Positions 12,448-40,550 of a DNA stretch of 64,000 bases are shown here, one piece after another (the stretch's first letter is position 1; each line of letters starts with the position of its first letter). The position numbers and the translations under genes were made by a program. The stretch lies in NCBI GenBank assembly GCA_030606565.1, contig JAUWGE010000001.1, forward strand, positions 4,478-68,477, in the 5' to 3' direction. Source of the DNA: Candidatus Bipolaricaulota bacterium. Its GTDB lineage: Bacteria > Bipolaricaulota > Bipolaricaulia > UBA7950 > UBA9294. Below the pieces are notes generated by a model that was not told where the DNA came from, made no database searches, and saw only the letters and a program-made list of their open reading frames with translations.

Positions 12448-12464
12448 GTTGTTTCATTAAATAA

Positions 12465-19005: not shown

Positions 19006-19670
19006 TGAGGAGTGCGAGTTTCTACCTTCTTTTAGGATTGATCCTCCTCGTCGTTGTTGCCATTACAGGTTGCCTTGGGGTGAAGTCTGGCGAACCTCAG
19101 GCCCTGTTCACCGCTTCGCCGGTGAAGCACATTATTCCGTTCACGGCCAACTTCGATGGAACCCTCTCTTACGACCCCGATGGACGGATCGTCTCCTACA
19201 TGTGGAACTTTGGGGACGGTGCCGCTGCGGAGGGACCACAGACCGCACACGTCTACGAGGAGGACGGAGAGTATACGGTTTTACTGACCGTGGTTGACAA
19301 CCAGGGAATCTCCGGTTCAATTTCCCTTATGGTGCAAGCGCTCAACCCACCGCCTTCCGCCACCTTCTTCTACAGACCCAAGAGCAAGATGGGTGATAAG
19401 TACATCGTGGGGATGTATGAGTTGATCACCTTCAACGCCTCGGAATCAACCGACGATGGAGAGGTTATCGCCTACGACTGGAACTTTGGGGACGGGGAGA
19501 CCGCTCAGGGCGAGGTTGTAGAGCACCGCTACCTCTGCGCGGGCACCTACAAAGTCGTCCTTATCGTCACTGACGATGACGGCGGAAAGACAAAATACGT
19601 TGATTGGATCAACATCCTTGGAGAGCAGCCCTGCAACGGCGTCTGCCCAGGAGAAGGGAGTTGCCGATGA
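19006..19670 (+). CDS. Lipoprotein with two PKD domains
   Basis: A lipobox ...AITGC is present. Two WNFGDG (PKD W-x-FGDG) signatures are present. ATG follows a GGAG RBS. Confidence 0.75.
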
Positions 19671-20677
19671 AGAAAACGATTCTTGTCCTGCTTCTCCTTG
19701 TGCCACTGTTCCTGACTGGATGCAGCTTAAATGACATCATGAGCGGCCTGGTGAACCAGGTTCCAGAAGCGGTGATCGATGCCTCTCCCAGGGAGGGGGA
19801 TGCCCCGCTGACGGTGAAATTCGATGCCAGTTACTCTCACGACGATGGAACGATCGCGAGCTACCATTGGGACTTCGGCGATCCACATGACACTGTGCCA
19901 GCGAGCGAGGCCGTTGCCTCCCATAGCTACACCCTGCCTAGGAACTACCTTGTTAAGCTGACCGTGATCGACGACAAAGGTGAGATAGGCTGCGAGAAGA
20001 TTGCAATTATAGTTAAAAACCCACCACCGGTGGCGAGCTTCACGGTGAGTAACGAGCTCCCCCGCGCCGGAGAGACCGTGATATTTGATGCTTCCGAATC
20101 CTACGACTCAAACGGTGAGATTGTCAGTTACGCCTGGAAGTTCGGTGATGGCAACACCGGTAGCGACGTTTGGACTAGTCACGCCTACATGAAAGATGGT
20201 GACTACGATATCACCCTCACCGTCACTGACAATGCGGGGGCGATGGGTAAAGCGCGCCAACGTAGGATCACCGTGCAAGAAGGAAGCGGCGGGTGCCCTG
20301 GAGACTCCTGTGGGATTAGCGGTGACCGTCCATTAGCTGTGATCACTGTGATCACAGGGCCTCACTCCTGTCAAGATTGGAAAGTCGGCGTCCCGATCGA
20401 GTTTGACGGAAGCTTCTCTCGCGCCGCTGAAGGAACGATCATCCGCCATGCGTGGGACTTCGGGGATGGCGAGAGCGCTGTTGGCGCACGGGTGAGCCAC
20501 GCCTATCAGCAGGCCGGCTCGTTCACCGTCACTCTTACCGTCACCGACGATGAAGGACGACGGTCATCAGCCCATCGGGACAAGCTGCTACTAGTTGAAG
20601 AAAGCGTTCAGCTTTCAGCTGTCAGCGCTCAGCTATCAGCAAATAGTCTCGGCAGATGGGATTTTCCTGAGGGCTGA
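19667..20677 (+). CDS. Lipoprotein with three PKD domains; last ~28 codons encoded by a palindromic repeat element
   Basis: The signal peptide is MKKTILVLLLLVPLFLTGC. Three PKD signatures are present: WDFGD, WKFGDG and WDFGDG. The start overlaps the upstream stop (ATGA). Confidence 0.75.
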   Translation: MKKTILVLLLLVPLFLTGCSLNDIMSGLVNQVPEAVIDASPREGDAPLTVKFDASYSHDDGTIASYHWDFGDPHDTVPASEAVASHSYTLPRNYLVKLTVIDDKGEIGCEKIAIIVKNPPPVASFTVSNELPRAGETVIFDASESYDSNGEIVSYAWKFGDGNTGSDVWTSHAYMKDGDYDITLTVTDNAGAMGKARQRRITVQEGSGGCPGDSCGISGDRPLAVITVITGPHSCQDWKVGVPIEFDGSFSRAAEGTIIRHAWDFGDGESAVGARVSHAYQQAGSFTVTLTVTDDEGRRSSAHRDKLLLVEESVQLSAVSAQLSANSLGRWDFPEG

Positions 20678-20716
20678 CTGCTGAACGCTTCTTTCTTCCT
20701 GATCGCTGATAGCTAA
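20597..20716. repeat. ~120-bp palindromic interspersed element (copy 1 of 2), GCTGAnn-rich arms
   Basis: gaagaaagcgttcagctttcagctgtcagcgctcagctatcagc...gctgactgctgaacgcttctttcttcctgatcgctgatagct. It is ~85% identical to 51258..51368. The arms are inverted repeats. Confidence 0.6.
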
Positions 20717-20842
20717 ATGCCAAGTGTCGGACACAGGTTCCTCCGCTACGAATGCCCTCCTTCGATGTTTTATTTCGTCGTGCAATAACAGGCCTTGTGA
20801 CGTAGAATTGACTTAGGTAACGACGAGAGGGTGAGTTTGAAA

Positions 20843-21445
20843 ATGAAAGTTCGATCGGCTCTTTTACTATTGGGCGTCGTGGTTGCCCTGACCGGCTGTC
20901 TCTTTCAAAGCATTCCCCGCGCCGATTTCACTCCTACCCCCTCAAGCGGCTACCCACCGCTTACGGTGCACTTCGATGCGAGTGCCTCGAGGAGCCCCAA
21001 TGGGCCCATCGTATCATACGATTGGGACTTTGACGATGGAGAAGAATCAAGCGGGGTGACGGTCGACCACACGTTTACGGTGAAGAGGATATATCGGGTT
21101 ACCCTTACTGTGACCGATTCCGAAGGAAAAGTGGGAACGCTCTACCGCAATGTCCAGGCCCTGAGTCTTCCCCCTGTTGCTGACTTTGATTACTGGCCCT
21201 ACCTACCAACCAAGCAGACCCCGGTGGAGTTCGATGCGCGTGAATCCTACGATCCCGATGGGGAGATCGACGAGTGGATCTGGTCGTTCGGGGACGGCAC
21301 CTCGGGCTGGGGAGAGATCACCGAGCACCTCTTTCCCACGGCAGGGATCACGTATTCCGTCACCCTGACCGTGATCGACGATGACAATGTGGAAAACTCC
21401 ATTACAAAGCCCGTGTGGGTCGTCGGCTGCGAGGGCTGCGGCTGA
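20843..21445 (+). CDS. Lipoprotein with two PKD domains
   Basis: The signal peptide is MKVRSALLLLGVVVALTGC. Signatures WDFDDG and WSFGDG are present. Confidence 0.7.
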   Translation: MKVRSALLLLGVVVALTGCLFQSIPRADFTPTPSSGYPPLTVHFDASASRSPNGPIVSYDWDFDDGEESSGVTVDHTFTVKRIYRVTLTVTDSEGKVGTLYRNVQALSLPPVADFDYWPYLPTKQTPVEFDARESYDPDGEIDEWIWSFGDGTSGWGEITEHLFPTAGITYSVTLTVIDDDNVENSITKPVWVVGCEGCG

Positions 21446-25946: not shown

Positions 25947-26179
25947 CTAAAATCAGCCGTCAGTGATCAGCCATCAGCAGTCAGGAAAGAAGGAGCGATC
26001 AGGGAAAAGAAGTAATGAGTGATCAGGGGAAAAGACAGTCAGTAATCAGCCAAAAGAAGAAAAGGCGCTTTTAGCTGACGACTGAGTGCTGACGGCTTCT
26101 TCTTCGTGACGTTACGCTTGACGCACCGGTCTGCTATCCTTAGAATAGAAATTACAAACGTAATATAAATAGTATTCCT

Positions 26180-26437
26180 ATGAAGACAAAGACGATAACT
26201 GTGAAACTAGAAGACGAACTCGCGAACGCTGTAGAACGCATGCAGAAAGAGGCGGGTTTCCACAGCAAGAGCGAGATGATTCGCGAAGGGCTGAGAGTGT
26301 TAATCGCACGGGAACGCCACCGGAAACTAACAGAGAACCTCACGCGCTATCTGAGAGATCGCGAAGCCCTCGACGAAGCAGCCCAGGAGGTTGAAGAGCG
26401 AATACCGTCCACCGAAGAGGCGCTGAAACGGTCGTAG
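26180..26437 (+). CDS. Ribbon-helix-helix (CopG/ParD-like) antitoxin
   Basis: The RHH N-terminus is TITVKLEDELANAVERMQKEAGFHSKSEMIREGLRVLI. The gene lies immediately upstream of the MazF-like frame. Confidence 0.6.
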   Translation: MKTKTITVKLEDELANAVERMQKEAGFHSKSEMIREGLRVLIARERHRKLTENLTRYLRDREALDEAAQEVEERIPSTEEALKRS

Positions 26438-26439
26438 CC

Positions 26440-26785
26440 ATGATCCAGCGCGGTGCGGTGTTCAACGTCAACTTTTCAGTCCAAGGCGTGGCCATGAAGG
26501 AGTAAGGCCGGCGATTGTCATACAAGCCGACCTTTACTGCCCTCTCTCAACCCTTCTCGTCATTCCCACTTCAACACACGCCCGCAAGGAGATTGACTTT
26601 CATGTCCCGGTGACCGTTCAAGGGATTCGCACCTATGCGTTGATCGAGCAGCTCACCGCGGTGGACAAAACAAGGCGGATAAAGAGCGAAAACTATCTGG
26701 GGAGGATCTCACCGAAAGAGATGGAGAAGATTGATCGGATGCTCAAGGTTTTCATCGGCCTCGATTCAAAACTGTCGTTCCTCTA
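26440..26785 (+). pseudogene. mazF: MazF/PemK-family toxin disrupted by a frameshift near 26495-26505
   Basis: Frame A reads MIQRGAVFNVNFSVQGVAMKE* (stop at ~26503). A second frame continues GHEGVRPAIVIQADLY...VIPTSTHARKEIDFHVPVTVQGIRTYALIEQLTAVDKTRRIKSENYLGRISPKEMEKIDRMLKVFIGL, which is a typical MazF. Confidence 0.6.
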
Positions 26786-26958
26786 GCTGAGAGCGATCGG
26801 TAATCAGCGATCAGCTTAAGGCCTCTAAGGCTGACAGTTGATAGATGGTAGCTATTTCCCCTGCCTTTGATTTGCTTTAGGCTGATAGCTGAAAGCCAGT
26901 AGAGTTCGCCGCCCACCGGGCGGGACGTTCTTCACGGTTCTGGTAAACTTGTGAGGCA

Positions 26959-27474: not shown

Positions 27475-27592
27475 GCTAGCTATCAGCCGTCAGGGAGGAA
27501 CAAACCGTCAGCTACCAGCTTTCACCATCAAGCAGAAGCGGCTTTTCTTTTAGCTGAGCGCTAAATGCTGACGGCTGATTGCTGGTTGCTAC

Positions 27593-28189: not shown

Positions 28190-28325
28190 GGTCCAAAGTC
28201 CAAAAAGCGGTGATGAGTTAAGGGTGATGAGAGAAGAAGAGCGGGATTAAGGAGTATGGATTAGGGATTCAAGGGGCGAAGGCAGCGATGAGGGATAGGT
28301 GAATCGTGGATGGTAGACTGTGAAT

Positions 28326-28403
28326 GGTGAATGGTCCAGAGTCCACAGTCCAGAGCCGGTGATAAATTGTGAATTGCGAATGATGGAGAGCGGGTGTGTG
28401 CTG
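28326..28403. repeat. 78-bp interspersed repeat built of 7-nt periodic units (copy A)
   Basis: GTGAATG GTCCAGA GTCCACA GTCCAGA GCCGGTG ATAAATT GTGAATT GCGAATG ATGGAGA GCGGGTG ... It is ~94% identical to 32310..32387. Confidence 0.7.
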
Positions 28404-28455
28404 AAAGCTGACGGCTGATAGCTGAAATGCTGATAGCTTGACCGTTGATTGCTGG

Positions 28456-28866
28456 TCATAGCAGGAAGCTTCTCGTCCGAAGCGGTACAAAACGACAGAT
28501 CTCCTCAAAGTGGTTGTCCGCATGCCAGAGCAGAAGATCCTTGGCAAGGGCAGCCTGGGCGATCAGTAGATCCGGAAGGGGGATAGGAAGCCCCTCTTTG
28601 CGCAGCGTATACCCCAGGCGAGCCGCCTCTTTCCAGACACCTTCGTCGATGGGAATATCTGGAACTACACCGAGGTGTTCCAGCAGTTTGTCAAAACTTT
28701 TCTCATCCCTTGAACCGATCAGGATCTCCGCTCGTACAACCCAACACGAGAAGACGCGCCCTTTGGTAAGCGCCTTCTTCACCGAGGCCTTTAGTTCCTC
28801 CCGCCCCTCCGGTCGGAGATAATGGACCCAAACCGAGGTATCGATAAACACGGGCTCTTCGCCCAT
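28456..28866 (-). CDS. vapC: PIN-domain toxin VapC
   Basis: MGEEPVFIDTSVWVHYLR...D...IAQAAL is the PIN pattern. The start overlaps the vapB stop. Confidence 0.75.
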   Translation of the reverse strand: MGEEPVFIDTSVWVHYLRPEGREELKASVKKALTKGRVFSCWVVRAEILIGSRDEKSFDKLLEHLGVVPDIPIDEGVWKEAARLGYTLRKEGLPIPLPDLLIAQAALAKDLLLWHADNHFEEICRFVPLRTRSFLL

Positions 28867-29102
28867 CAGATCGACTCTGCGCTGGATTCGCGCCACTCTT
28901 TGAGATCCTCCGGCGTCAGCTCAACGAGGCCTGAGCCAGCAAGTTCGGATAGCTTCTTCAGATGGCGTGCGCGCACGAACTCACGGAGCGCCACCTCGAT
29001 GGCCTCCCGTTTGGTCTTTACGTTAGCCAATCGCCTGCTCTCTTCCAGAAGTTCAGGATCCACCGAAACCGAAAGTCTACTTATGGTGCACCTCCAAAAC
29101 AC
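28866..29102 (-). CDS. vapB: VapB-family antitoxin
   Basis: ...LSVSVDPELLEESRRLANVKTKREAIEVALREFVRARHLKKL... resembles Rv0623-like VapB antitoxins. The exact start is unclear, with no ATG near the RBS. Confidence 0.6.
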   Translation of the reverse strand: MFWRCTISRLSVSVDPELLEESRRLANVKTKREAIEVALREFVRARHLKKLSELAGSGLVELTPEDLKEWRESSAESI

Positions 29103-29397
29103 CTAGAAGATACACCATTCATCGAGGGTTAACAAGCCAGTGTCAGTATGGTAGGGATTGTGGATAGTTGATCGCTGGTGGAGGGAGAAGGCTAATACGT
29201 TTCTCTCTCTTCCCGCGTCCCCGTGTCTTCCCCTTCCCTTCTCCGTGTTCTCTCCGTCCTCTGCGGCGAGGCGTATGAAAAAGGGCTCTTCGCTATTCGG
29301 CCTGCCTGCAGCAGGCAGGTCCGGTTCGGAGGGGGGAGGGACCGGGAACTTAACTGGTCCTTCCTACCCTATCTGGGTCTTCGCATCAACAAAAACG

Positions 29398-29421
29398 GCC
29401 CCGGGGCCCTTCCGGAGGAAT
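29398..29421 (-). terminator. Terminator-like palindrome GGCCCCGGGGCC followed by T-run (minus strand)
   Basis: A perfect 12-bp palindrome with TTTTT follows on the minus strand. It lies just downstream of the relE stop. A similar motif follows the two beta-helix genes. Confidence 0.45.
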
Positions 29422-29449
29422 GCGGAAGATATCTGCGGTGCCTCATCTA

Positions 29450-29716
29450 CTACCGGCCCCCCAGGCGCTCCATGACCTCGTGGGATCCTATTCGACGGAG
29501 TATAATGGCCTCGCCTTCTATCTGAAAGGTGGACCGGTAGCCGCCGCCGACCTTCGCCTTCCAGATCCGCTTCCGTTTGTCGATGATCCGCGCTTCCAGA
29601 GAGGGATGCCGAGGAGCCTCCAGCAGAAAGGCAAGCTGCTTATCAAACCGCTTTTGGATTTGGAGGGACAGGCTCTGGTAATCGCGGATGAAGGGCTTCG
29701 TGAAAACCGGCTTCAT
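29450..29716 (-). CDS. RelE/ParE-family toxin
   Basis: MKPVFTKPFIRDYQSL...GGGYRSTFQIEGEAIILRRIGSHE matches the RelE pattern. Confidence 0.7.
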   Translation of the reverse strand: MKPVFTKPFIRDYQSLSLQIQKRFDKQLAFLLEAPRHPSLEARIIDKRKRIWKAKVGGGYRSTFQIEGEAIILRRIGSHEVMERLGGR

Positions 29717-29997
29717 GCCCTGGTCTTTTTTAGAGCTTCAATCGCCTCTTGGGTTGTCGCAAAGGGTCCGATCAACTCACCCTTCTTAATTGCCTCATCC
29801 GCCTCCCGCTCCTTCTTTTGCCATTCCTTTGACCAAAACCAGACATCTTCCTTATCAACCAGCCTCTTGGGAATGATGACGATCTCGCCCCCTTGGGCTT
29901 CGACCTCGACGTAGTCGCCAACCTCCAAGCCCACCTGCCGACGTACCTTCTCGGGGATGGTCACTTGGTATTTGGTCCGCACTTTGACTACCGGCAT
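29713..29997 (-). CDS. AbrB/MazE/SpoVT-family antitoxin
   Basis: MPVVKVRTKYQVTIPEKVRRQVGLEVGDYVEVEAQGGEIVIIPKR is a swapped-hairpin AbrB-type fold. It overlaps relE (ATGA). Confidence 0.65.
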   Translation of the reverse strand: MPVVKVRTKYQVTIPEKVRRQVGLEVGDYVEVEAQGGEIVIIPKRLVDKEDVWFWSKEWQKKEREADEAIKKGELIGPFATTQEAIEALKKTRA

Positions 29998-30341
29998 CGT
30001 TCTCCCTCCTCTATCAAGAGTTTGAAAGCAATGCAGTATTGCAAACTGATTATAATGCTGTCCATCTCTAACTGCAAAGGTCCGCAAGAGTCGAGAGTTG
30101 AGTGAAGCCCATTCGTTGAGTTCGTTGAGTTTGATCACCCACTACCTACTACCCACCATTCTCATCTGTCCAAAGGTCAAGGTCCAACGTCCAAGGTTGG
30201 TGGTAAATGGTGAATGGTAAGTAGTGAGTAGTGAATGGAGAACGCTGACCGCTGATTGCTCCAAGGAAAACAGCACGGGGTCTTAGCAGCCGGGATGATA
30301 TTAAGTGTCAAGTGTGGGCATGACCCCGGAGCGCGGTGAAC

Positions 30342-30626
30342 TTACCCCCGATACGCCTCACGCCGAGGCTTGCAGGAATAGAGCACCACGTTCTTTTCGA
30401 GGACATCGTAGCGAATCCGGTAATCCCCCGAGGCAATTCTCCACTGCCCTTCCCCCTTCTTCATTCCCTTGAGCTTCTTGATGTTGTGCCGACCGCTCCG
30501 GGCGTAGGGATCTTCACGGAGAACTTCTACCATGGCCTCAACATGGGAGATCGCTCCGGGCGTTCGTCTGGCCAGACTCTTGTAGTCGCGGTCGAAGTGA
30601 GGGGTACTGAGGATGCGGTAGGGCAT
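30342..30626 (-). CDS. RelE/ParE-family toxin
   Basis: ...KKLKGMKKGEGQWRIASGDYRIRYDVLEKNVVLYSCKPRREAYRG is the canonical RelE C-terminus. Confidence 0.7.
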   Translation of the reverse strand: MPYRILSTPHFDRDYKSLARRTPGAISHVEAMVEVLREDPYARSGRHNIKKLKGMKKGEGQWRIASGDYRIRYDVLEKNVVLYSCKPRREAYRG

Positions 30627-30636
30627 GGGCAGGCTG

Positions 30637-30930
30637 TCACTTCGGCCGCTTGGTCGTCGTGCGCACCTCGGCTAAGACTTTCTCCACGGAACGGGTCTTG
30701 CCAGTCTGATACTCCCGGTAGCCCTGCCGAATCTGTGCCTTCAAAGACTCATCGTGCAGATCCAGGTAGTCCTCCAGCTCGTCGGCGTCGAGGATACCGA
30801 GCACCGGGAGCCCATCCCGCTCTACGATAATGTATTCCTTGCCCACTTTCACCCGGCGGATCAGCTCACCGAAGTGGGTCTTGGCCTCGGTCGCGGAGAC
30901 GCGGGTCACTTTGGGAGCTCGTGTGGCCAT
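30637..30930 (-). CDS. Phd/YefM-family antitoxin
   Basis: ...VSATEAKTHFGELIRRVKVGKEYIIVERDGLPVLGILDADELEDY matches Phd/YefM. Confidence 0.75.
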   Translation of the reverse strand: MATRAPKVTRVSATEAKTHFGELIRRVKVGKEYIIVERDGLPVLGILDADELEDYLDLHDESLKAQIRQGYREYQTGKTRSVEKVLAEVRTTTKRPK

Positions 30931-30946
30931 CTCCCCTCCTCAATGG

Positions 30947-31150
30947 TCAACGTTGGTCAATCAGGAGGATAGCCGAAAGAAGAGCGGAAAGCAAGGCCTT
31001 ACCGGGGAGACCTACCCGGTCCTTGACCTCATCCGAGCGCTCGATCATCCCTGCATCCAGAGCGGTCATCACGTCTACCCCGCGGGCGCGTAAAGCCTGT
31101 ACCAGGTCTTTATCCATGGCATCTTCATCTATATAGAGACGGATTGTCAC
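30947..31150 (-). CDS. DUF5615-family PIN-like protein (toxin-like partner of DUF433)
   Basis: MTIRLYIDEDAMDKDLVQALRARGVDVMTALDAGMIERSDE... matches the DUF5615 pattern. Confidence 0.6.
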   Translation of the reverse strand: MTIRLYIDEDAMDKDLVQALRARGVDVMTALDAGMIERSDEVKDRVGLPGKALLSALLSAILLIDQR

Positions 31151-31449
31151 GAATCTTTTTCTTTCTGGGAGAGAAAGTGCTCATGCTTCAATCGCTCAGC
31201 CTCCGCTTCCTCGGCAGCGATGTCGGCTTCGATCTCTTCTCGATTGGCGTGATAATAGGCCAAGGCGGCGTGGACTTGAGCTAGGGATAAGTGGCCTATC
31301 CGATCTGCAATTTCTTCCGGGCTCAACCCTAGCTTATACCAGCCTACGATGCGCCGTACCGTCACGCCTGTCCCCGCAATCCGCGGACGCCCCCCACGCA
31401 CCTCCGGCGTCCGAACGATGAGCGTCCCAACCTCAACTACATTTGCCAT
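31147..31449 (-). CDS. DUF433-family antitoxin-like protein
   Basis: ...VRGGRPRIAGTGVTVRRIVGWYKLGLSPEEIADRIGHLSLAQVHAALAYY matches the DUF433 core. It overlaps the downstream DUF5615 gene. Confidence 0.7.
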   Translation of the reverse strand: MANVVEVGTLIVRTPEVRGGRPRIAGTGVTVRRIVGWYKLGLSPEEIADRIGHLSLAQVHAALAYYHANREEIEADIAAEEAEAERLKHEHFLSQKEKDS

Positions 31450-31816
31450 GATTGATCGCCCCTCACGATACTGTTGTCCGTTTTGTAGAGATGTGATCTA
31501 TATTTAGTCTAACGCATGTGCTCGACCATTGTCAGCACCTCGTCTCTTTCCGGGTTTGGATGCTAGATGTGAGGATATTAGGTGTTAGGCGCGGTGGGTG
31601 ACGAATGGTGAAAGCGGCCGCAGATGGTGGGTAGTTTGTGGTTCGTAGTTTGAAGTTCAAAGTTCCTGGTTTGCTGACTTGCCGACTCTTGACTCAATCT
31701 CTCAATGGCTCTCGACTCTACCGTGCCCGGAGAGTGTCAAGTGTAGGCCTGACCCCGGCGTTCTGGTAAGTAGTAGGTGGAAAAGCTAGGAGCTGAAAGC
31801 TGACGGCTGATAGGCG

Positions 31817-32233
31817 TCACGCCAGCTTTGTCTTTATCCTTTCTATCTCGCTTTTGTTCTTCTCTACATCGCCTTCTATCCGCCCGATCCACGCCGTTGT
31901 AGCAACTCTCTCCTGATCGATACGGGTGAGAATTGTCATCATCTTGTCCTGACCGCGCGCCATCTCGTCCATGCGTTCGTTGAACTCCGTCCTGGTCACC
32001 ATTTTTTTTATCTCTTCACGGTTGTTAATGACTTGAATGGTGAGGTTATCGATCTTCTTGCTGTTCGTATCGATCTTCACGCTGTTCGTATCGATCTTCT
32101 TGCTGTTCGTATCGATCTTATCAGTGAGTTTCTGTTCCACCTGATCGATCCTGCCAGTGAGTTTCTGTTCCACCCTGTCGAGGTCTTTTTTGGTCGCTGG
32201 TTCGTCACGGCGGTCGTTCATAGACACCTCCAC
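31817..32233 (-). CDS. Coiled-coil protein with 7-aa tandem repeats (IDTNSKK)x3 encoded by 21-nt DNA repeats
   Basis: ...KIDTNSKKIDTNSVKIDTNSKKIDNL... The DNA carries three tandem copies of cttgctgttcgtatcgatctt. Confidence 0.45.
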   Translation of the reverse strand: MEVSMNDRRDEPATKKDLDRVEQKLTGRIDQVEQKLTDKIDTNSKKIDTNSVKIDTNSKKIDNLTIQVINNREEIKKMVTRTEFNERMDEMARGQDKMMTILTRIDQERVATTAWIGRIEGDVEKNKSEIERIKTKLA

Positions 32234-32309
32234 TTGATAGTTATAGCGACTGCCCTCAGAGCTGTCAACCTCCGCTGGCGGCGAATGGTGGGTAGTGAGT
32301 GGTGGGGGG

Positions 32310-32387
32310 GTGAATGGTCCAGAGTCCAGGGTCCAGAGCCGGTGATAAATTGTGAATTACAAATGATGGAGAGCGGGTGTATGCTGA
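32310..32387. repeat. 78-bp interspersed repeat built of 7-nt periodic units (copy B)
   Basis: ~94% identical to 28326..28403. Confidence 0.7.
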
Positions 32388-32616
32388 CCGCTGATCGCTT
32401 CTCTTAGCTGTCAGCTCCTGGCGATCTTAGCGTCTTAGCGAGAGAAAGGCATGTGCTTCTCGCGAAGGCCTGTCTGCCTCGCCGGCACAGGCAGGCCTGT
32501 CTGCCGTCGTATTCTGACAGGCAGGCGCGGAGACACGGGGAGGAGGAGACGCGCAACAGGCAAGTCAGAGCAGTCAAACGTCAAGAAACAAGCATCTTAC
32601 CGCAGAGGGCGCCGCG

Positions 32617-32820
32617 GAATTGAGAGATCGGGAGATCGTATAATTGATAGATTGAATCATCGGGAGATCGTATAATTGATAGATTGAATCATCGGGAGAT
32701 TGAGAGATTGGGGAGTTAAATCACTCAATTGCTAAATCACTCAATCTCTCACTTACTCACTCGCTCAATCATTCAATCAATCTCTCACTCGCTCAATCCG
32801 AAGAAGTCTGGTAAGATATC
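32617..32820. repeat. Composite element: tandem ~32-bp (8-nt periodic) GATCGGGAGATCGTATAATTGATAGATTGAAT units plus complementary AATCACTCAATC arm (copy 1 of 3)
   Basis: The left arm carries about 2.5 tandem units. The right arm is built of 8-mers such as AATCACTC, AATCTCTC and ACTCGCTC, which are partly the reverse complement of the left arm. It ends in ctcaatccgaagaagtctggtaagatatc. Confidence 0.65.
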
Positions 32821-32888
32821 GGTTGGAATTGGCTTTGGAATCTTGCTACACTGTTTTAGAGTGAACTTTTGCAGGAGGGGAATATCGC

Positions 32889-33116
32889 ATGAGCAAGGAG
32901 CAAGACCGAACGGAAGTAAAGATAGGGATCTCTGTTGAAGAGCTAATATCTGCTATCAACGAACTGGATGAAGAGCACAGGGAGTTCCTGATCGAGAATC
33001 TCCTGGCTGCCACGAATCCTGATTACCTTCACAGCATCGAAGAGGCGCGAGTGAATTATAGGCAGGGCCAGATCCTTCCCCATAATAAGGTATTTGGCAA
33101 GGCGGAGAAGAATTAG
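32889..33116 (+). CDS. Putative antitoxin partner of RelE/ParE toxin
   Basis: A small acidic protein lying 10 nt upstream of the relE/parE-like gene. ...ISVEELISAINELDEEHREFLIENLL... Confidence 0.45.
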   Translation: MSKEQDRTEVKIGISVEELISAINELDEEHREFLIENLLAATNPDYLHSIEEARVNYRQGQILPHNKVFGKAEKN

Positions 33117-33125
33117 GGGCAAGCT

Positions 33126-33380
33126 TTGAAATACGAGCTGTTATATACCAAGCGTGCGGCAAGGGACATCTCCAGATTGGATCAGGTAGCCAAGGAGCGA
33201 CTAAGGAAAACCTTGGAGAGGTATGCACAATCTCCTTTCGACTACGCGAAGAAGATGGTGGATCCGGCGCTGGGTACTTATCGCTTCCGAATCGGAGAGT
33301 ATAGAGTCATCTTCGATGTGGAAGGTAATAAGATCGTTGTCTTGCGAGTAGGCCATCGTCGCGAGATATACCGCGGATGA
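33126..33380 (+). CDS. RelE/ParE-family toxin
   Basis: MKYELLYTKRAARDISRLDQ...GTYRFRIGEYRVIFDVEGNKIVVLRVGHRREIYRG is the canonical pattern. Confidence 0.75.
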   Translation: MKYELLYTKRAARDISRLDQVAKERLRKTLERYAQSPFDYAKKMVDPALGTYRFRIGEYRVIFDVEGNKIVVLRVGHRREIYRG

Positions 33381-33737
33381 GAGCAGCTTCCCGTTCAAGA
33401 TCGAGTATTGTGGCATCAGGTTTAACGAGGGATTCTGGGCGGACATCTTCATCGAAGCAAGGGATACTTCCCAAGAGGACACGTCCCAAGGCTATCTTGT
33501 CTGCTGTGCTGGCACAGGCAGGGAACTCAAATCGGTAAAAGCGGTGAACAATGCCGCAAGAAGCAACTGCTTACGTACCTGCCTGTCTGCGTCCGAAGGA
33601 CAGGCAGGCGCAAAGACCGCAAAGAGCTGTCAGCTATCAGCCGTCAGCGATCAGCTTGGACTACCAACCCAGTTTGTTTCTTACTCTGCCCTTCACTCAC
33701 CACTCTTCACTGCTTTAGCGCCTTTGCGAGAGGCACA

Positions 33738-34010
33738 AGCTTTTTCTCTCGCCCGTTCGTTGCACTCACTCAAGCCGCAAAGGTCGCGGAGGAATTGAGA
33801 GATCGGAAGATTGAATGATCAGGAGATCGGATGATTGATAGATTGGATGATCGGGAGATCGTATAATTGATAGATTGAATCATCGGGGGATTGAGAGATT
33901 TAGAAGCTAAAATTTAATCAATCGCTCAATCATTCAATCGCTCAATCATTCAATCACTCAATCTCTCACTTACTCACTCATTCACTCACTCACTCATTCA
34001 ATCACTCAAT
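33738..34010. repeat. Composite 8-mer tandem-array element (copy 2 of 3)
   Basis: It shares the leader ...cgttcgttgcactcactcaagccgcaaaggtcgcggaggaattgagagatcggaagattgaatgatc... with the copy at 38597. It carries about 3 tandem units and a complementary CTCAATCATTCAATC arm. Confidence 0.65.
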
Positions 34011-34013
34011 AAA

Positions 34014-34052
34014 AACGGCCCCGGGGGGTTAGCCCCAGGGCCGGGGGAATTG
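34014..34052 (-). terminator. Rho-independent terminator of the beta-helix gene (minus strand)
   Basis: A GGCCCCGGGG...CCCCAGGGCC hairpin is followed by TTTTT on the minus strand, directly after the stop. A near-identical structure follows 40605..43943. Confidence 0.5.
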
Positions 34053-34061
34053 CGAATTAGG

Positions 34062-37000
34062 TTATCTCAGGATCGCGAGCTTCTTTACCTCGCTCACGAC
34101 CCACTCACCATTGACCAGCGCGTACAGCTTGTAGAGATACACCCCGTTGGCGAGGTACTCGACGTCGCTGTTCTCGGTGTGCCAGTCAAGGCTCGCGCCA
34201 GGCTCCTCGGCCTCGTAGACCAGTCGGCCGGCAAGGTCGAAGATCTGGACCTTGATCGCCTCGACGTACGCTGCCGCGCCCTTCACCGCAAACGTGGTGG
34301 TGTGGACATCGATGATCGGGTTCGGACTAACTGTAAATGTCAGCACCTCTAGGATTTCACGCAACGAGAGCGTGGGCGGTGGCGGCGGATTCCCCATGGT
34401 CCCTGTACAAGCGCGCCACACCACCTCGCCACATGCAGATCCCGTAGTTATGCCAGATCCGGAGGGTGCGAAATGCAGGATGACCCCACTCGTGAGCGCC
34501 TTCAACCAATAGCCCGTCCAGGGGTCGAGAACTGCACCTGAGCTACCATCGATAGCTTCGTACTCCCCGGTTAGTACGTTGTATGTCCAAAGACGACCCT
34601 CAATCCAGCCAGCAGCCACCGCGTCAGCGAGCGATTTCACTTCACCGTCCTTGGACAAGGTGATCGAGTCACCGCTACCCCACACAACGGGGTAAGGAAC
34701 GCCGATCATGTGCCAGCCCGCTCGCTCCAATAGCAGCGCTTGCTCTCCCACCAGGGAGTCACCTTGGAAGTGAAGCTCCATCGGCTCGCCAAGACAGAGC
34801 CAATACCCGTGCATACAGCAGATGGCGGTGAGCGTCCCTGCCTGACAACTGTCATAGCACTGGCCGTTGTAGTTGAACAGACGCAGCGGATCAATGCCAG
34901 CAAAGACTACTTCCGGGGTATTGTCCTCAAGCGACAGCGGAATCGCGATCATGTGCCAGCCCGCGGACAGGTTCAACACATTCTCGGCCTCGAGGGCAGT
35001 GATCGTCACGTCATCGTAGTCGGACTTGCTAGAATGATTCGTCACTACCAATGTGATCACATACCGACCCGGCACGTCGGGAATGAAGGTTGGGTCAACC
35101 GTATTGCTGTTGGACAACATCGCCCGACTACCGGTGGGCTTCACGGCGATCGACCAATCGTAGCCGACCCAATCGCTTCTTGTATCTCGCGATTCCGACG
35201 CGGACCCATCCAACTGCACCAAGCGCCCCACGGTCACTGTTTGATCTTCTCCCGCGTCCGCCTCGGGACGCGGGCGACTCGGCCCACCGCCGCCGGCAGC
35301 CGTTCCCGATCCGAAGGCAAGGCCGGTCAGGTCGTCGAGTGTGGGTTGGGTTGTGGGAGTAACGGTTACCTCCACACAATTGGTAGCTGCATTGAACACC
35401 TGATTGGAGCATTGCTGCCAGGCCGCGCCATCCCAGTAGGAGATGATCGTACGCGCATTCGACGGGCAAAAGTCGATCGTTAAGCTGTTTACACCTGTAT
35501 CGTCATCCAAATGGACATCCCAGTAGTTGCCGGTTGCGTTTCCCAACGCCGTACCGCCGGGATTGTTGTTGTACGTGGCAGTTGTGATCGTGTGATCTCC
35601 TGCTGCGTCGATATCAATGGAGCCGATCCCGGTCACAGTATCATCAGCAGGGACCGTACCGTCACCAGAGACAGTGTTCGACGACGCCTCCCCCAACTCC
35701 GCTCCTGTCCACGGGCAGTAGTCCACGTTGGCGCTGACCTTGTCGCCAGTGCCATCAGCGTTCACCTCAGTTGTGGGATCATCGGTGCAGGGCGGGACCT
35801 CGTTTGTGCCATCAGTATCCTCTGGCCCACTGTCATCGCCCCACCAGTTGTTGGTGGCGTCAAATTGGTTTGTATCCACGTTTTCAACACCGTACCGCGT
35901 ACTGCCGGTGATATTGTTGAAATGGGCTTCGTTGCTTGCATGATGGACGAACAAGCCGACGACATTCCCCGTCAGGGTGTTTCCCTGCACGCTGACGTTA
36001 GTAGGGCTCTCGCCAGGCATCCCTCCGATAATGATCCCCGAATTCCAATACGTGTTAACACCTACAGGCTTTGAATCAGCATAGGTGAGACCCATGTCGG
36101 TGACGGTATTGTTGGTAATCGTACAATCCGACGACCATATCTGGATGCCGTTGATACCGTCGCTAACTGTGTTGCTGTCAACGGTAACGTTACCGCCAGC
36201 AGCACTAGGATTGACATTGTCTTGTACATGTATTGAAGCGTAATCCCAGTCGCCGGTGCCGTCCCCACCATAATAGTTACACTTGGTCAGGGTGTTATCA
36301 TAAACATAAGTGTATGGAGCGCCAATGACCTGGATACCCGGGTACTTGGTTCCAGAGATGATATTGCCTATCACCTGTACCCTGTCTGCTGTCCCGGTAG
36401 CGCCAGACCTTATTATGTTTATACCCTTATCCTCAGTAGCGTTAATCTCGTTATTGTAGATATAGGTGTATGGGCTGCCAAAGGTCTGGATACATGCAGC
36501 ACCCCAGGTGTTTCCGCAGTCAGATACAATGTTACCAGTTACTTCTACCCTGGTTGCTTCGCTAGTGGCAGGGCAATTTCTTACATATATGCCCTTATCT
36601 GCACAAGAGCTGACTATGCAATTTGAGACTCTACACCCTGTGACACCATTAAGGTAAAATCCATTCTCCCCATTTATCGCCTTGATCCCTTGTACTATTA
36701 CATTATTCGTGGTTATCTCGAAGCAGTTATTGGCTGATTGCGGGGCAGCATATTGCACCAATACCATCTCGGGATTTCCAACATCACCGGTGATGGTCAC
36801 CCCTTTGTTAACGACAATTGCCTGAGTAATTGTATACGTCCCCGCTGCCACATTGACTGTGCTGGCGGTGACTTCGTCCACGCCCTCCTGGATGCGCCCG
36901 GTTGCACCAGTTTGTGGGCTGTCATCATCCACGTTTAGCACGGACAAATCGCCCTGGAAACCGGGTCCGGGATCTGTGTCAGTCCCGCTGTCCAGCCAGG

Positions 37001-38009
37001 GGGTGTAGTCGACATCGGCGCTGACTTCGCCAGCTACGCCGGCTGCGGTGTTGGTGCTCCACCAGTTGCATGAGGCATCAAGGGTTGTTCCAACATCTAG
37101 GTTGTTTACTCCGTAGGCGACACTGCTATAGATGCTGTTGTAATTGATAGTATGGTCTGCATTATGAACAATCCTGACACCGTCTCTAGCACTGCCATAT
37201 ATTTCGTTATACTGAATGTTCACATCGTGAGAATTGGCAGTTCTGATGCCATCGTGGCCAACATTCTTGATTTCGTTGTACTCTACGGTGTTGTTCGAAC
37301 CTACTGAGGAGTAATTGAAAAGGATCCCTGCGCCACCTGAGTTCTCTATCAGGTTATGCTCAATTAGACTATTAGTGATATCAGCAGTCCATGAGTTCAA
37401 GCCAAGGAACATTCCACAACCACCACTAGGACCTATGTCCAGAATCCAATTATAGGACACAGTCAGATTGTCGCACTCGCAGGCGAAGATGCCAGGCGCA
37501 TTCGTTGTCACAGGCGACGCGGAAGGCGTTACGATGTTGTTCTTGATGACTACATCGTCAGCTCTATTCTCGACAATATCGTCACCAGCTTTAAGCGTGA
37601 AGCCATCAATTATAACGCCATCGGCACCATCGAAGATATAGATGGCATTGCCATGTGGGACGTTGGGTCCTTCAATGATGGACTCCGCAACACGCGTACC
37701 GTAACCAGGGGTTCCTGCATTGGCACCGCGGAGCGTTATCCCACCTTGGCTGCCATCGAATTTCAGTCCATAGTGATCCGTCGCGAATGGCCCTCCTGCC
37801 GGGGTATACGTCCCCGCCGCCACGTTGATCGTGTCGCCAGCAGCAGCGGCATCAATGGCAGCTTGTATCTTACAGTAGGGGTCGGCCTGAGTACCACTAC
37901 CAGGCCCTGGGCAGTTGTCATCATCAACATACCAATCCGCCGCCAACCCCACCGCTCCCGATACCAAAATCGTTAATGCCAGCACTCCTACAGCCATCCA
38001 CCGTTTCAT
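34062..38009 (-). CDS. Large secreted right-handed parallel beta-helix (pectate-lyase-fold) protein with C-terminal conserved cassette and sorting-type C-terminal domain
   Basis: The signal peptide is MKRWMAVGVLALTILVSGAVGLA. The N-terminal motif is DWYVDDDNCPGPGSGTQADPYCKIQAAIDAAAAGDTINVAAGTY. Many NxxxxN/IxxN beta-helix rungs follow. The C-terminus is ...VQIFDLAGRLVYEAEEPGASLDWHTENSDVEYLANGVYLYKLYALVNGEWVVSEVKKLAILR. The start is ATG 38009 after AGGAGGAGGA. Confidence 0.8.
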   Translation of the reverse strand: MKRWMAVGVLALTILVSGAVGLAADWYVDDDNCPGPGSGTQADPYCKIQAAIDAAAAGDTINVAAGTYTPAGGPFATDHYGLKFDGSQGGITLRGANAGTPGYGTRVAESIIEGPNVPHGNAIYIFDGADGVIIDGFTLKAGDDIVENRADDVVIKNNIVTPSASPVTTNAPGIFACECDNLTVSYNWILDIGPSGGCGMFLGLNSWTADITNSLIEHNLIENSGGAGILFNYSSVGSNNTVEYNEIKNVGHDGIRTANSHDVNIQYNEIYGSARDGVRIVHNADHTINYNSIYSSVAYGVNNLDVGTTLDASCNWWSTNTAAGVAGEVSADVDYTPWLDSGTDTDPGPGFQGDLSVLNVDDDSPQTGATGRIQEGVDEVTASTVNVAAGTYTITQAIVVNKGVTITGDVGNPEMVLVQYAAPQSANNCFEITTNNVIVQGIKAINGENGFYLNGVTGCRVSNCIVSSCADKGIYVRNCPATSEATRVEVTGNIVSDCGNTWGAACIQTFGSPYTYIYNNEINATEDKGINIIRSGATGTADRVQVIGNIISGTKYPGIQVIGAPYTYVYDNTLTKCNYYGGDGTGDWDYASIHVQDNVNPSAAGGNVTVDSNTVSDGINGIQIWSSDCTITNNTVTDMGLTYADSKPVGVNTYWNSGIIIGGMPGESPTNVSVQGNTLTGNVVGLFVHHASNEAHFNNITGSTRYGVENVDTNQFDATNNWWGDDSGPEDTDGTNEVPPCTDDPTTEVNADGTGDKVSANVDYCPWTGAELGEASSNTVSGDGTVPADDTVTGIGSIDIDAAGDHTITTATYNNNPGGTALGNATGNYWDVHLDDDTGVNSLTIDFCPSNARTIISYWDGAAWQQCSNQVFNAATNCVEVTVTPTTQPTLDDLTGLAFGSGTAAGGGGPSRPRPEADAGEDQTVTVGRLVQLDGSASESRDTRSDWVGYDWSIAVKPTGSRAMLSNSNTVDPTFIPDVPGRYVITLVVTNHSSKSDYDDVTITALEAENVLNLSAGWHMIAIPLSLEDNTPEVVFAGIDPLRLFNYNGQCYDSCQAGTLTAICCMHGYWLCLGEPMELHFQGDSLVGEQALLLERAGWHMIGVPYPVVWGSGDSITLSKDGEVKSLADAVAAGWIEGRLWTYNVLTGEYEAIDGSSGAVLDPWTGYWLKALTSGVILHFAPSGSGITTGSACGEVVWRACTGTMGNPPPPPTLSLREILEVLTFTVSPNPIIDVHTTTFAVKGAAAYVEAIKVQIFDLAGRLVYEAEEPGASLDWHTENSDVEYLANGVYLYKLYALVNGEWVVSEVKKLAILR

Positions 38010-38211
38010 TTCCTCCTCCTTCTCAAACAAAAGAGCTCCCTTTCGGAGCTCCTATGATCCGCTAACAAGTAAAGAACCATTCACTATCAAATCTCTACAC
38101 TTCTCCCCCGCCCTAAGAAGTAAATCACCCATCTACATCACCAGCGTCTCCTGATACCCCCTTTAGCATAACATACAATCTGCAATTATGGATTTTTTAA
38201 TCACATAACTA

Positions 38212-38262
38212 CTATATAACTCGTTACACGTATTTGTACTATATAGCTCGTTACACGTATTT
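38212..38262. promoter_or_regulatory. 23-bp AT-rich direct repeat (x2) in the promoter region of the beta-helix gene
   Basis: ctatataactcgttacacgtatttgt / ctatatagctcgttacacgtatttgt. Each copy contains the partial palindrome ACACGT. Confidence 0.35.
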
Positions 38263-38596
38263 GTCAAGTGTTTGTTGTCCGCAGAAGCCTTAACATTGAG
38301 CACCTTTGCTTAGAGAAGACCTCTCCGGCAGTATCCATCGTGTGAGCGCTGCCAAGGAACTCGTCATCTGCGGAGGAATGCTGGGGCACGTGTAAGCAGT
38401 TAGCAATCCATAGCCCATGCGAAACGCTCTCCAACAGTGATCCGCTCGACGTTGACTTCTCGCCGCCGAGCGCGCAAAGAACGCGGAGAGATTCCTGATC
38501 GCCGTCCGTGATCTCGACGATCTCCGCGGTGAGCTGGAAAGGTCGAACACTGACTGCTGATGGCTTCAAAGAAAACAGCACGGGATCTGGCGTTCT

Positions 38597-38870
38597 TCGT
38601 TTTCTCTCGCCCGCTCGTTGCACTCACTCAAGACGCAAAGATCGCTGAGGAATTGAGAGATCGGAAGATTGAATGATCGGGAGATCGGATGATTGATAGA
38701 TTGAATGATCGGGAGATCGGATGATTGATAGATTGAATGATCGGGGGATCGTATAATTGATAGATTGAATGATCGGGGGATCGTATAATTGATAGATTGA
38801 ATCATCGGGGGATTGAGAGATTGGGGAGTTAAATCACTCAATTGCTAAATCACTCAATCTCTCACTCAAT
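38597..38870. repeat. Composite 8-mer tandem-array element (copy 3 of 3; 5 tandem ~32-bp units)
   Basis: gattgaatgatcgggagatcggatgattgata is repeated 5 times with minor variants, then AATCACTCAATTGCTAAATCACTCAATCTCTCAC follows. The right-end motif ctcaatccgaagaagtctggtaagatatc recurs at 39030..39058. Confidence 0.65.
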
Positions 38871-39057
38871 TGCCCTCTCTGCGTACTCCGCATCCTCGGC
38901 GGTGGAAGCTTCTGCTTCGCAAGGAGAAGAGGCTTGTAGAACAGGTTCTGTAAAAAAGCCAAAAGCAAAGCCCCCATGATCTCTACTGATATGGAGGTGA
39001 TGAAGCCAGATCGCTTATATGGGGAAAATACTCAATCCGAAGAAGTCTGGTAAGATA

Positions 39058-39315
39058 TCAGTCCTTGAGTAGCTTAAGACGCTTTAGATCCTCTTCGCTC
39101 CACTGAGCCTGCTTGCCAATCATGCTTTGCAGGGTGCCGATCTTAAAGGTTTGACCAGGGTAGTGGAAGGTCACGGTAACTCTACGGCCATCGGCGTGTG
39201 CATAGCGATGATGTGATCCTCGTCGACGCTTGCGGCAAAACCTATCCCGCTCCAAGGCCGTGATCAATTTGCCAGCCGTAAGGCTGCGGAGTTTGCTGTA
39301 GTCGATCTCGCTCAT
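39058..39315 (-). CDS. hicA: HicA-family toxin
   Basis: ...GSHHRYAHADGRRVTVTFHYPGQTFKIGTLQSMIGKQ is the HicA/YcfA pattern. Confidence 0.75.
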   Translation of the reverse strand: MSEIDYSKLRSLTAGKLITALERDRFCRKRRRGSHHRYAHADGRRVTVTFHYPGQTFKIGTLQSMIGKQAQWSEEDLKRLKLLKD

Positions 39316-40133: not shown

Positions 40134-40550
40134 ATATAGCTCCTTTTCTATTCATCAACTCACAATGATCCGCCAGCACACCCGCTTGATAGTACGATGG
40201 GTGATCCTGTCCGTCAATACGTCTCACAGGCGGTGGACTGATTGGCGACAATTATTTGGCTCTTTCGCAGGTTGGCTGATGGTGGGAGCAAGCTTTCTTC
40301 CGGCGGCGTGGAAGCCGCCTCTGCTTCTGGTCTTTCCATCTCACCGCAGAGCAGCAGGCTCTCGCTCCCATGCCCAGCCCGGGGGACGCAGTATAACTCC
40401 GGTCTTTTCCTTCAAAGCGCTTGAACGCATGATAAACAGATAGGTACGGGTCTTGTTCTCGTGTAGCTAGCCCATTAATCAGCCAACCTGCAAAAGACCC
40501 GAAAATAAGCTGATGGCTGACGGCTAATAGCTACCAACTCCCTAACAAAG

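Follow-up and report, generated by a model that had tools for sequence, protein, structure and literature searches.

Heptanucleotide repeats in intergenic DNA have been known since 1990, were recognised as widespread as of 2007, and have no accepted function. Another group of short repeats, modular and resembling miniature inverted-repeat transposable elements (MITEs), comprises the pneumococcal BOX (boxA-boxB(n)-boxC), Correia/NEMIS, RUP and the cyanobacterial Nezha/SDR, and intercistronic RNA hairpins are exemplified by the E. coli repetitive extragenic palindromic (REP) stabilisers and the RNase III sites of phage T7. In this work, we analysed a 64,000-nt stretch of DNA (the window) from a Candidatus Bipolaricaulota bacterium (contig JAUWGE010000001.1, positions 4,478 to 68,477), which holds a toxin–antitoxin (TA) island with spacers made of 7-nt and 8-nt periodic arrays and of a larger composite octamer element. 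With moderate confidence, we interpret these spacers as a mosaic of non-coding, dispersed repeat modules, slippage-prone and recombining, which would serve as transcript-punctuating rearrangement junctions. The modules would be characteristic of this uncultured lineage; the window is related to the metagenome-assembled genome (MAG) CBDUVB01 and to MAGs named Candidatus Bipolaricaulota.

Among the heptanucleotide repeats already described, the long simple sequence repeats (LSSRs; Mrazek 2007), the cyanobacterial short tandemly repeated repetitive (STRR) sequences and the GGGAATC/GGGGAYT repeats of Xanthomonas and Nostoc (PMC4692102) resemble the arrays of the window in their 7-nt unit, strongly intergenic location, presence on both strands and in inverted pairs, variation in length and sequence among close relatives, and lack of an established function. 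Our arrays differ from them in being imperfect (a fixed pentamer plus two random bases) and short (3–10 units), in combining several pentamer families in a fixed order, in having polar arms, and in not being G-quadruplex-forming. The TAACTGA repeats of Beggiatoaceae, Cyanobacteria and Bacteroidetes (MacGregor 2015, PMC4679880) are likewise heptamers with a CTGA core that carry stop codons; they occur intergenically in 2–6 copies, stand in the forward direction just upstream of starts, and are scattered across distant phyla, between which no transfer mechanism is known. However, the TAACTGA repeats have exact units that are hardly ever inverted (one indirect set vs. 169 direct; PMC4679880), whereas the units of the window have free spacer bases and usually form pairs of inverted arms starting from the upstream stop codon. 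Rfam at the gathering threshold matched tRNAs alone in the window, with two chance matches below threshold in the island (E about 0.6-0.9), and literature searches by taxon and by repeat sequence returned no description of these repeats. Heptanucleotide and MITE/BOX/REP repeats are known classes, of which these particular repeats appear, by the Rfam and literature searches, to be an undescribed variant.

Repeat arrays in the spacers of the TA island

Period-7 arrays or the recurrent motif GCTGAYGGCTGAT are present in 10 of the 12 spacers of the island, which Pfam scans place at 25.9–40.6 kb, vs. 4 of the 30 other spacers (Fisher p = 3.5e-5). The initial annotation of this DNA is largely confirmed. 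The window contains 17 period-7 arrays, 16 of them non-coding, as compared to 1.25 in shuffled sequences (14 times commoner); of the other non-triplet periods, 5, 10 and 11 yielded 0–1 arrays. The lag-7 identity is 0.289 in non-coding vs. 0.245 in coding DNA. With up to two mismatches, GCTGAYGGCTGAT has 34 matches vs. 3.5 expected (shuffle maximum 9); it was recovered at essentially all positions where it had been annotated, and the heptamer runs quoted in the annotation map to 28321-28355, 28407-28434 and 30207-30234. Independent metagenome contigs reproduce the spacers at 98–100% identity, so the island spacers are not assembly artefacts.

The heptamer unit consists of an invariant pentamer (GCTGA/TCAGC) and two free bases in a strict 7-nt phase; further families are built on TGGAC, on CAYTCAC/GGTGA and, with an 8-nt period, on GATTG/CAATC. 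Arrays are 3–10 units long. There are 24 GCTGA pairs spaced by exactly 7 nt and 0–1 at any other distance of 5–12 nt. The two spacer bases of the GCTGA heptamers carry just 0.03–0.05 bit, and neighbouring units never have identical spacer bases (0 of 24 in the window, 0 of 13 in relatives). Arrays begin within a few bases of stop codons, and the arm beside the stop codon, taken in the direction of the upstream gene, was (A/G)TCAGCN in all cases examined. In five spacers, a GCTGANN arm comes 30–100 nt after the TCAGC arm, with fold z-scores of -3.0 to -4.6. Such paired arms, (NNTCAGC)n and then (GCTGANN)n, are predicted to form a single-strand hairpin of 5-bp helices split by 2x2 mismatches; the GCTGA arms are G-rich and structured. 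Most arrays have stop codons in two or three frames on the G-rich strand and none on the opposite strand. The hairpins at 20.6 and 51.3 kb (copies A and B, 30 kb apart and ~90% identical) have U-rich tails, those at 26787-26900 and 27475-27592 have none, and copies A and B differ by exactly one heptamer (4 vs. 5 TCAGC units).

The cassettes between these spacers are an RHH gene with a MazF pseudogene, two antitoxin/ParE-like pairs, Uma2, VapB-PIN, MazE-like/ParE, Phd/ParE, DUF433 with a small partner, antitoxin/ParE and HicB-HicA. They point both ways and have promoter-like sites of their own; the island is interrupted by two large secreted beta-helix/PKD proteins. The MazF gene at 26434-26786 is a pseudogene with four stops in the expected frame, its C-terminal 58 codons alone being still open. 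Outside the island, the window is ordinary chromosome (MutS2, RNase III, tRNA clusters, metabolic genes), and a consensus scan of the window found canonical intrinsic terminators only after large genes. The heptamer tracts are as follows:

20596 to 20716: hairpin element copy A, (NNTCAGC)x5, loop, GCTGA arm and U-rich tail; fold z = -3.45
25947 to 26100: TCAGC arm at 25952-25985, GCTGA arm at 26074-26100; the tract separates the stop of the redoxin gene from the RHH/MazF-pseudogene cassette promoter, promoter-like site at 26118; fold z = -1.7
26787 to 26900: heptamer-arm hairpin starting from the stop codon of the MazF pseudogene; fold z = -3.55
27475 to 27592: heptamer-arm hairpin filling the gap of the convergent ParE-like and Uma2 genes; fold z = -3.03
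28190 to 28455, minus strand: unpaired; TCAGC array from the PIN stop, 91-nt module (28326-28416), TGGAC and CATTCAC arrays, Uma2 promoter; z = +0.8; C 37% and G 12% in the RNA sense; matched at 100% by strain contig L230
30130 to 30341, minus strand: ParE stop, module X (30262-30340), TCAGC array, and a hairpin of CAYTCAC and GGTGGGTAG arms with TTGGAC units in its loop, upstream of the MazE-like gene promoter (promoter-like site 30078); fold z = -3.49
31590 to 31816, minus strand: unpaired heptamer/octamer arrays, module X copy (31725-31770), GCTGA array (31790-31811); z = +1.85
32240 to 32403, minus strand: arrays directly upstream of the coiled-coil gene promoter (TTGACA..TATAAC), with the second copy of the 91-nt module (32309-32399)
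33625 to 33656, plus strand: TCAGC array downstream of ParE (33126-33380), then C-rich CAYTCAC-type units
40509 to 40528: heptamer array right after the intrinsic terminator of the 1112-aa surface-protein gene
51240 to 51355: hairpin element copy B, flanked by tRNA-Ser and a gene of unknown function; fold z = -4.61

The duplicated heptad-periodic unit that had been annotated at 28326 and 32310 is indeed a duplication, but its size and identity had to be revised from 78 nt at 94% to 86-91 nt at 90-92%. Copy A separates two PKD-domain ORFs (19604-20677 and 20831-21445), the first of which takes its stop codon inside the copy; this suggests an insertion of copy A within a PKD gene or at its end. 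A 27-nt unit upstream of the 1322-aa surface-protein gene is present twice (96% identity) at 38210-38267, overlapping the best promoter-like site of the region, TTGACA-18-TATAGT on the minus strand.

The C-rich unpaired arrays could also be viewed as Rho utilisation (rut) sites that terminate the transcription of cassettes without intrinsic terminators, an explanation that we consider improbable. The tract 28190-28455 is unstructured and, along with its C excess in the RNA sense, has 24 YC dinucleotides per 100 nt; YC dimers at each 7 nt give 14-nt spacings, which were counted as within the (YC)N9-13 rule (PMC6144790), and canonical terminators are restricted to the large genes. Nevertheless, these features recur weakly in 31450-31816 and are lacking in the other eight co-directional spacers, and a marked C>G skew is seen in only two of ten. 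Moreover, the GCTGA arms are rich in G and folded, and in relatives the arrays follow canonical terminators.

The composite octamer element and other modules

The window holds three copies of the composite element with 2.3, 2.6 and 4.6 head-to-tail units of 32 nt, each unit being made of four octamers, and the units are followed by a partly complementary 8-mer arm (57 nt, 75% complementary). In these respects the element is as initially annotated, and other parts of its description changed. The leader is common to copies 2 and 3 only, not to all three. The 3′ signature CTCAATCCGAAGAAGTCTGGTAAGATATC, which was thought to end each copy, occurs twice (32792 and 39031); it abuts copy 1 only, and copy 2 lacks it. 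The end of copy 3 is at about 38947 and not at 38870, with a terminal inverted repeat at 38931-38945. A CRISPR array is ruled out, in agreement with the annotation, by the head-to-tail arrangement of the units without unique spacers and by the absence of cas genes among the scanned ORFs. The composite copies and the signature modules are located as follows:

32598 to 32791, plus strand: composite copy 1, 2.3 units of 32 nt and the complementary arm; fold z = -2.65 and -3.65
32792 to 32820, plus strand: signature CTCAATCCGAAGAAGTCTGGTAAGATATC, which closes a separate ~76-nt module and marks the edge of the antitoxin/ParE cassette on its promoter side
33742 to 34010, plus strand: composite copy 2, leader as in copy 3, 2.6 units followed by a long arm of 8-mers; directly adjoins the 1322-aa surface-protein gene at its terminator
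38549 to 38947, plus strand: module X and a TCAGC-type array (38549-38600), followed by composite copy 3, in which the leader and 4.6 units of 32 nt precede a short complementary arm and the right-hand tail of the family
38984 to 39059, plus strand: ~76-nt module that ends in the signature and adjoins the hicA stop

The core of the 32-nt unit, scanned against a genome collection, matched 47 loci. The element is carried by 37 of them, which were analysed; they belong to MAGs named Bipolaricaulota or 'uncultured Thermotogae' and to CBDUVB01. The remaining matches are six Terriglobales/Acidobacteriota, one Anaerolineae and about three chance- or coding-like loci. CBDUVB01 has copies at 16 loci on 15 contigs, JAYEFP01 on 9 contigs. 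The relationship of the window to CBDUVB01 is seen in the syntenic genes, with 72-77% nucleotide identity, and in the tRNA cluster, which is 91% identical; the repeat family of CBDUVB01 is also present in the MAGs named Candidatus Bipolaricaulota. In the window, this cluster comprises six tRNA genes (Leu, Gly, Leu, Met, Met, Ala) at 11973-12538, the CBDUVB01 counterpart being locus L031.

The canonical element, about 273 nt long, is bounded by the inverted sequences (G)CCTGTTGCACAAACC / GGTTYGTGCAACAGC, and its predicted fold runs from one end to the other (z = -3.96). Copies of other MAGs have a single 32-nt unit and 0-7 AATCACTC units. At the 37 loci, all copies are intergenic, lie in both orientations and often start within 20 nt of a stop codon; between co-directional genes, the orientation bias is weak and non-significant (12 sense vs. 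6 antisense). Small hairpins (GGGGGGTGTAGTA..., CCTGTCTGCC...) are nested in some copies. The octamer core had no match among viral contigs.

The guess of a hairpin-forming MITE/REP-like element in the initial annotation is supported for the composite. The composite is small (<600 bp), non-coding, intergenic and multi-copy, has terminal inverted repeats, folds end to end, and shows presence/absence polymorphism (copy 1 is absent in strain contig L233). It shares with BOX, Correia/NEMIS, RUP and Nezha/SDR the small size, the palindromic and non-coding character, the terminal inverted repeats, the many dispersed and strictly intergenic copies in either orientation, the variable number of internal tandem modules (between conserved ends, 32-nt units number 1 to 4.6 and AATCACTC units 0-7) and the nested small hairpins, and it has the layout of BOX, with leader, internal modules and tail. 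The resemblance to BOX is architectural only: there is no sequence similarity, the arms are 8-nt periodic, the polymorphism is replacement-like, and neither target-site duplication nor partner transposase was found. REP, BIME and REPIN sequences with GTAG or CGTC tags (PMC3733652) are also intergenic palindromes, often in inverted pairs and within operons, with proposed roles in mRNA stabilisation, termination and rearrangement. However, REPs are single 20-40-nt stem-loops with a tetranucleotide tag, accompanied in the GTAG case by a RAYT gene, whereas the arrays here are tandem 7/8-mers without a GTAG or CGTC tag, and the window has no RAYT gene.

Since copies of other MAGs hold a single 32-nt unit, the window copies are therefore local 32-nt tandem expansions of a dispersed ~270-nt palindromic MITE/BOX-like element, whose left arm would have grown here by tandem duplication of the 32-nt block. 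Several element matches are situated at the ends of contigs; short-read assemblies of these MAGs are broken by the octamer element and could hide similar expansions.

Module X (GAACGCCGGGGTCAGGCCTACACTTGACAC...CCCGTGCTGTTTTCTTTGGAGC) is present in the window at 30262-30340, 31725-31770 and 38560-38600 and in strain contig L224 (57-135), and all four copies are directly followed by a TCAGC heptamer array. The ~76-nt module also precedes the antitoxin/ParE cassette in strain L233; the second signature, at 39031, is about 160 nt from composite copy 3, beside hicA.

Further repeat families were noted on the way. Two adjacent GTAG-containing REP-like hairpins (GGGGGGTGTAGTA...TACTACACCCCCC) lie at 50348-50442, downstream of the second PIN TA pair (49479-50220), and a hairpin of this type is also nested in element copies of the Bipolaricaulota MAG loci L003, L022, L037 and L044. 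Another hairpin family, CCTGTCTGCC...GGCACAGGCAGG, occurs at 29290-29325, 32471-32530, 33498-33610 and 55505-55600 and at JAYEFP01/CBDUVB01 loci; the homology with strains L232-L234 stops at its copy 33498-33522. A C-rich 8-nt periodic family (CCCGTGTC / TCCCCTTC types) is found at 29200-29260, L049:2231-2357 and L018:7520-7590.

Cassette order differs between near-identical strains at repeat modules

Short contigs of near-identical strains from other samples were found by exact-protein look-ups for HicA, PIN and ParE; the same look-ups with Uma2 and the coiled-coil protein gave no match. L230 is 100% identical to the window over 1.5 kb. In L228/L229, where VapB-PIN is 98.5% identical, the TCAGC array that separates PIN from Uma2 contains an intact MazF-RHH cassette. 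Both junctions of this insert have the 8-nt direct repeat CAGCATTT, and the breakpoints fall at 28408/28432 of the window, in the heptamer tract. The inserted MazF is intact (116 aa); the window has its copy, 92% nucleotide-identical and with MazF decayed, elsewhere. In L229, the insert is followed at 1601-1861 by a Lys/Arg-rich ORF, truncated by the contig end, that gives by eye the impression of a transposase N-terminus; L228 has Uma2 there.

In L224, the homology breaks at the array at 40525, which has one extra heptamer and is preceded by module X as a different upstream module. In L233, composite copy 1 is replaced by 79 nt between flanks that are 99.3% identical (breakpoints 32597/32792). 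The homology with L232 begins right after the signature, at the promoter edge of the cassette. Furthermore, the octamer arm of copy 3 differs among L224, L226, L227 and the window despite identical hicA and 197-nt flank. The relative L056, with HicB at 85% amino-acid identity, is devoid of the ParE-like cassette of the window, and its homology resumes exactly at the -35 box of hicB. Unit numbers change too, the TGGACCN array having 3 units in the window and 9 in L052. A filled/empty site comparison of L018 with the window gave no result, the synteny stopping before the element.

Taken together, these comparisons show that the modules gain or lose whole units and undergo exchange among their copies, and that the cassette order differs between near-identical strains exactly at repeat modules. 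The suggestion that the repeats delimit cassettes thereby gains real support, since contigs with 96-100% identical flanking genes break in or at heptamer arrays (28408/28432, 40525) or at composite edges (32597/32792).

Chromosomal integrons typically carry TA cassettes, and the island could be viewed as a cassette array of this kind, in which the imperfect hairpins would be attC-type sites of a site-specific recombinase. As with attC sites, variable imperfect hairpins with short conserved motifs stand at the 3′ end of many cassettes, and the content differs between strains at these hairpins. Despite this likeness, an integron-like origin is highly improbable. The GCTGA repeats are unlike the R′/R″ cores of attC, and the same kind of hairpin separates the genes of a phage structural operon. 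An integron cassette array was rejected given the absence of an integrase gene in the 64 kb, the mixed orientation of the cassettes and their own promoters.

Relatives, phage contigs and the role of the arrays

A metagenome scan found no close ortholog of the 1322-aa protein (at most 44% identity), and the loci obtained were still informative for the heptamers. Six of them with a homologous surface-protein gene (L049-L054) share a fixed order, namely the gene stop, a canonical terminator, a TCAGCNN array, a TGGACCN array, a CAYYACT array and a promoter, TTGACA..TATAAC, that drives a coiled-coil gene homologous to 31817-32233 of the window. In L052, the 91-nt module is 90% identical while the neighbouring proteins are only about 40% identical. 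The coiled-coil protein of the window has internal tandem repeats of 21 nt (7 aa, KIDTNSK) and 33 nt; its homologs in relatives always follow heptamer arrays and a promoter of the window type, and in L049 the gene is tandemly duplicated (1727-2158 and 2434-2811).

In Terriglobales, the octamers GATTGAAT CATCGGGG GATTGAAT form intergenic hairpins, and the heptamers NNGCTGA and CTGAGTG are present too. The Terriglobales/Acidobacteriota loci with octamers of the window type (GATTGAAT CATCGGGG GATTGAAT CATTGAA) and heptamers in such hairpins are L004, L007, L025, L026, L030 and L038. Orthologous spacers of different MAGs (L027:1040-1145 and L036:6040-6135; L013, L033 and L040) have octamer arrays with differing unit numbers, one between what look like adjacent genes for ATP synthase subunits and the other ahead of a housekeeping gene, as identified by eye; octamer arrays thus also reside in housekeeping operons and 5′ leaders.

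The heptamers extend to phages. At least 120 IMG/VR contigs contain GCTGAYN x3, and in some of them there are 15-34 arrays per 10 kb, the phage loci having been selected by the motif itself. L137 is a phage structural operon (terminase, portal, protease, capsid; the capsid at most 37% identical to cultured phages) with heptamer hairpins at nearly every gene boundary. Across the phage loci, TCAGC precedes GCTGA in 63 cases vs. 7 with the opposite order. Most arm pairs (51 of 63) lie between co-directional genes, typically beginning 2-11 nt past a stop codon and ending 2-30 nt short of the following start. The spacer bases of the two arms are complementary at 0.454 vs. 0.50 +/- 0.024 in the re-paired control, that is, not above it. 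Neither the heptamer arrays nor the composite element are TA-specific, and the heptamers are found also beside PKD/surface-protein genes, a tRNA gene, Terriglobales genes and phage structural genes. Since the phage hairpins fill the stop-to-start gaps of co-directional cistrons, and the window encodes RNase III, they recall intercistronic RNA hairpins; many arrays of the window, unlike these, are unpaired or follow terminators, and a role in RNA processing or stabilisation would hold by analogy.

Neutral polymerase slippage, to which the intergenic excess of heptamer LSSRs is ascribed (Mrazek 2007, as summarised in PMC4692102 and PMC4679880), would make the arrays by-products without function or any part in rearrangements. 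We regard this as unlikely. Tandem 7-nt units are indeed over-represented in the spacers, as in the intergenic DNA where heptamer LSSRs were already known, copies differ in unit number, and relatives have near-perfect runs (TGGACCT x5 in L052). However, the units are not the near-identical ones that slippage would leave: the spacer bases are random, none of the 24 neighbouring GCTGA pairs is identical, and variation is confined to two of the seven positions. Nor does slippage account for identical pentamers in different phyla and phages, for the 63:7 arm order, or for a precise placement within a few bases of stop and start codons.

The main rival explanation is a phased array of sites for a protein with sequence specificity, each 7- or 8-nt unit taking one protomer; this protein would regulate or organise gene boundaries. 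The explanation takes this place because an invariant pentamer, spacers that do not repeat and polar arms speak for a factor that recognises the arrays; as a whole, we hold it to be possible but doubtful. There are precedents among RHH proteins, with omega of pSM19035 recognising 7-bp WATCACW heptads, arrayed as direct and inverted repeats, and MetJ recognising 8-bp met boxes in tandem, while TRAP and HutP, which bind spaced motifs in RNA, provide a model at the RNA level. Phasing with direct and inverted units would fit such RHH operators, the binding here being putative, and RHH and other antitoxin DNA binders are encoded in the island; for the TAACTGA repeats, Csp or S1 have been proposed as binders (PMC4679880). 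An exact 7-nt phase with information-free spacer bases that neighbours never share, arm spacers without complementarity, a strongly polar arm order, arrays without a partner arm, arrays that abut -35 boxes, and the same pentamers in Terriglobales, the window lineage and phage contigs are all what a bound protein would lead one to expect. Yet no candidate protein emerged, the 30-100-nt loops between arms differ from the contiguous omega operators, and the GCTGA arrays flank PIN, ParE, MazF and HicAB as well as surface-protein, tRNA and phage structural genes. Operators of individual antitoxins are ruled out by the last point, as the same arrays flank all cassette types and non-TA genes.

Returning to the mosaic of repeat modules that we favour, its mechanism would be as follows. 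The short direct repeats of almost every spacer would provide microhomology for slippage, template switching or recombination, making each promoter-gene(s) cassette an exchangeable module, and hairpins, when transcribed, would punctuate the transcripts through 3′-end protection, termination or insulation. The build-up of repeats in the TA island would then reflect its density of short, independently transcribed accessory cassettes rather than TA function.

Several observations weigh against this interpretation. No integrase, transposase or RAYT gene was found by scans of the window ORFs, no transposase was found at the loci holding element ends, no autonomous partner of the composite turned up, and no consistent target-site duplication was seen at the element ends examined. 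The L233 polymorphism is a replacement, not a clean insertion, and as the strain contigs end in repeats, some octamer-arm variants could be assembly chimeras. The tracts 28190-28455, 31590-31730 and 32240-32389 have no partner arm and fold no better than shuffles. Finally, an invariant pentamer with random spacers never repeated between neighbours is unexplained by simple slippage, and neither the arm order nor the arm-spacer complementarity at control level is explained by a plain hairpin requirement. Because slippage and hairpin selection do not account for the pentamer, the spacers and the polarity, recognition by some factor is favoured.

A wider proposal, which we put forward tentatively, is that the (NNTCAGC)n...(GCTGANN)n arrays with their TGGAC, CAYTCAC and GATTG relatives are a gene-boundary punctuation signal, undescribed in the literature searched, that distant phyla and phages share. 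Fixed pentamer, 7-nt phase, non-repetitive spacers, arm polarity and stop-to-start placement may imply a conserved factor that recognises it. This could be a phased protein that binds nucleic acid, a nuclease or recombination hotspot recogniser, or else the machinery of translation or termination. The signal may double as a linker for the exchange of cassettes and phage modules.

For a class of repeats without accepted function, the locus supplies constraints beyond slippage, namely the invariant pentamer, random spacers, arm order, stop-to-start placement and spread across phyla and phages, together with direct cases in which near-identical strains differ by a cassette that was inserted into an array or exchanged within it. 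Should the arrays indeed be recombination linkers or factor-binding punctuation, they would help to explain the modularity of TA islands and phage genomes, and would provide a sequence signature for cassette boundaries in uncultured genomes.

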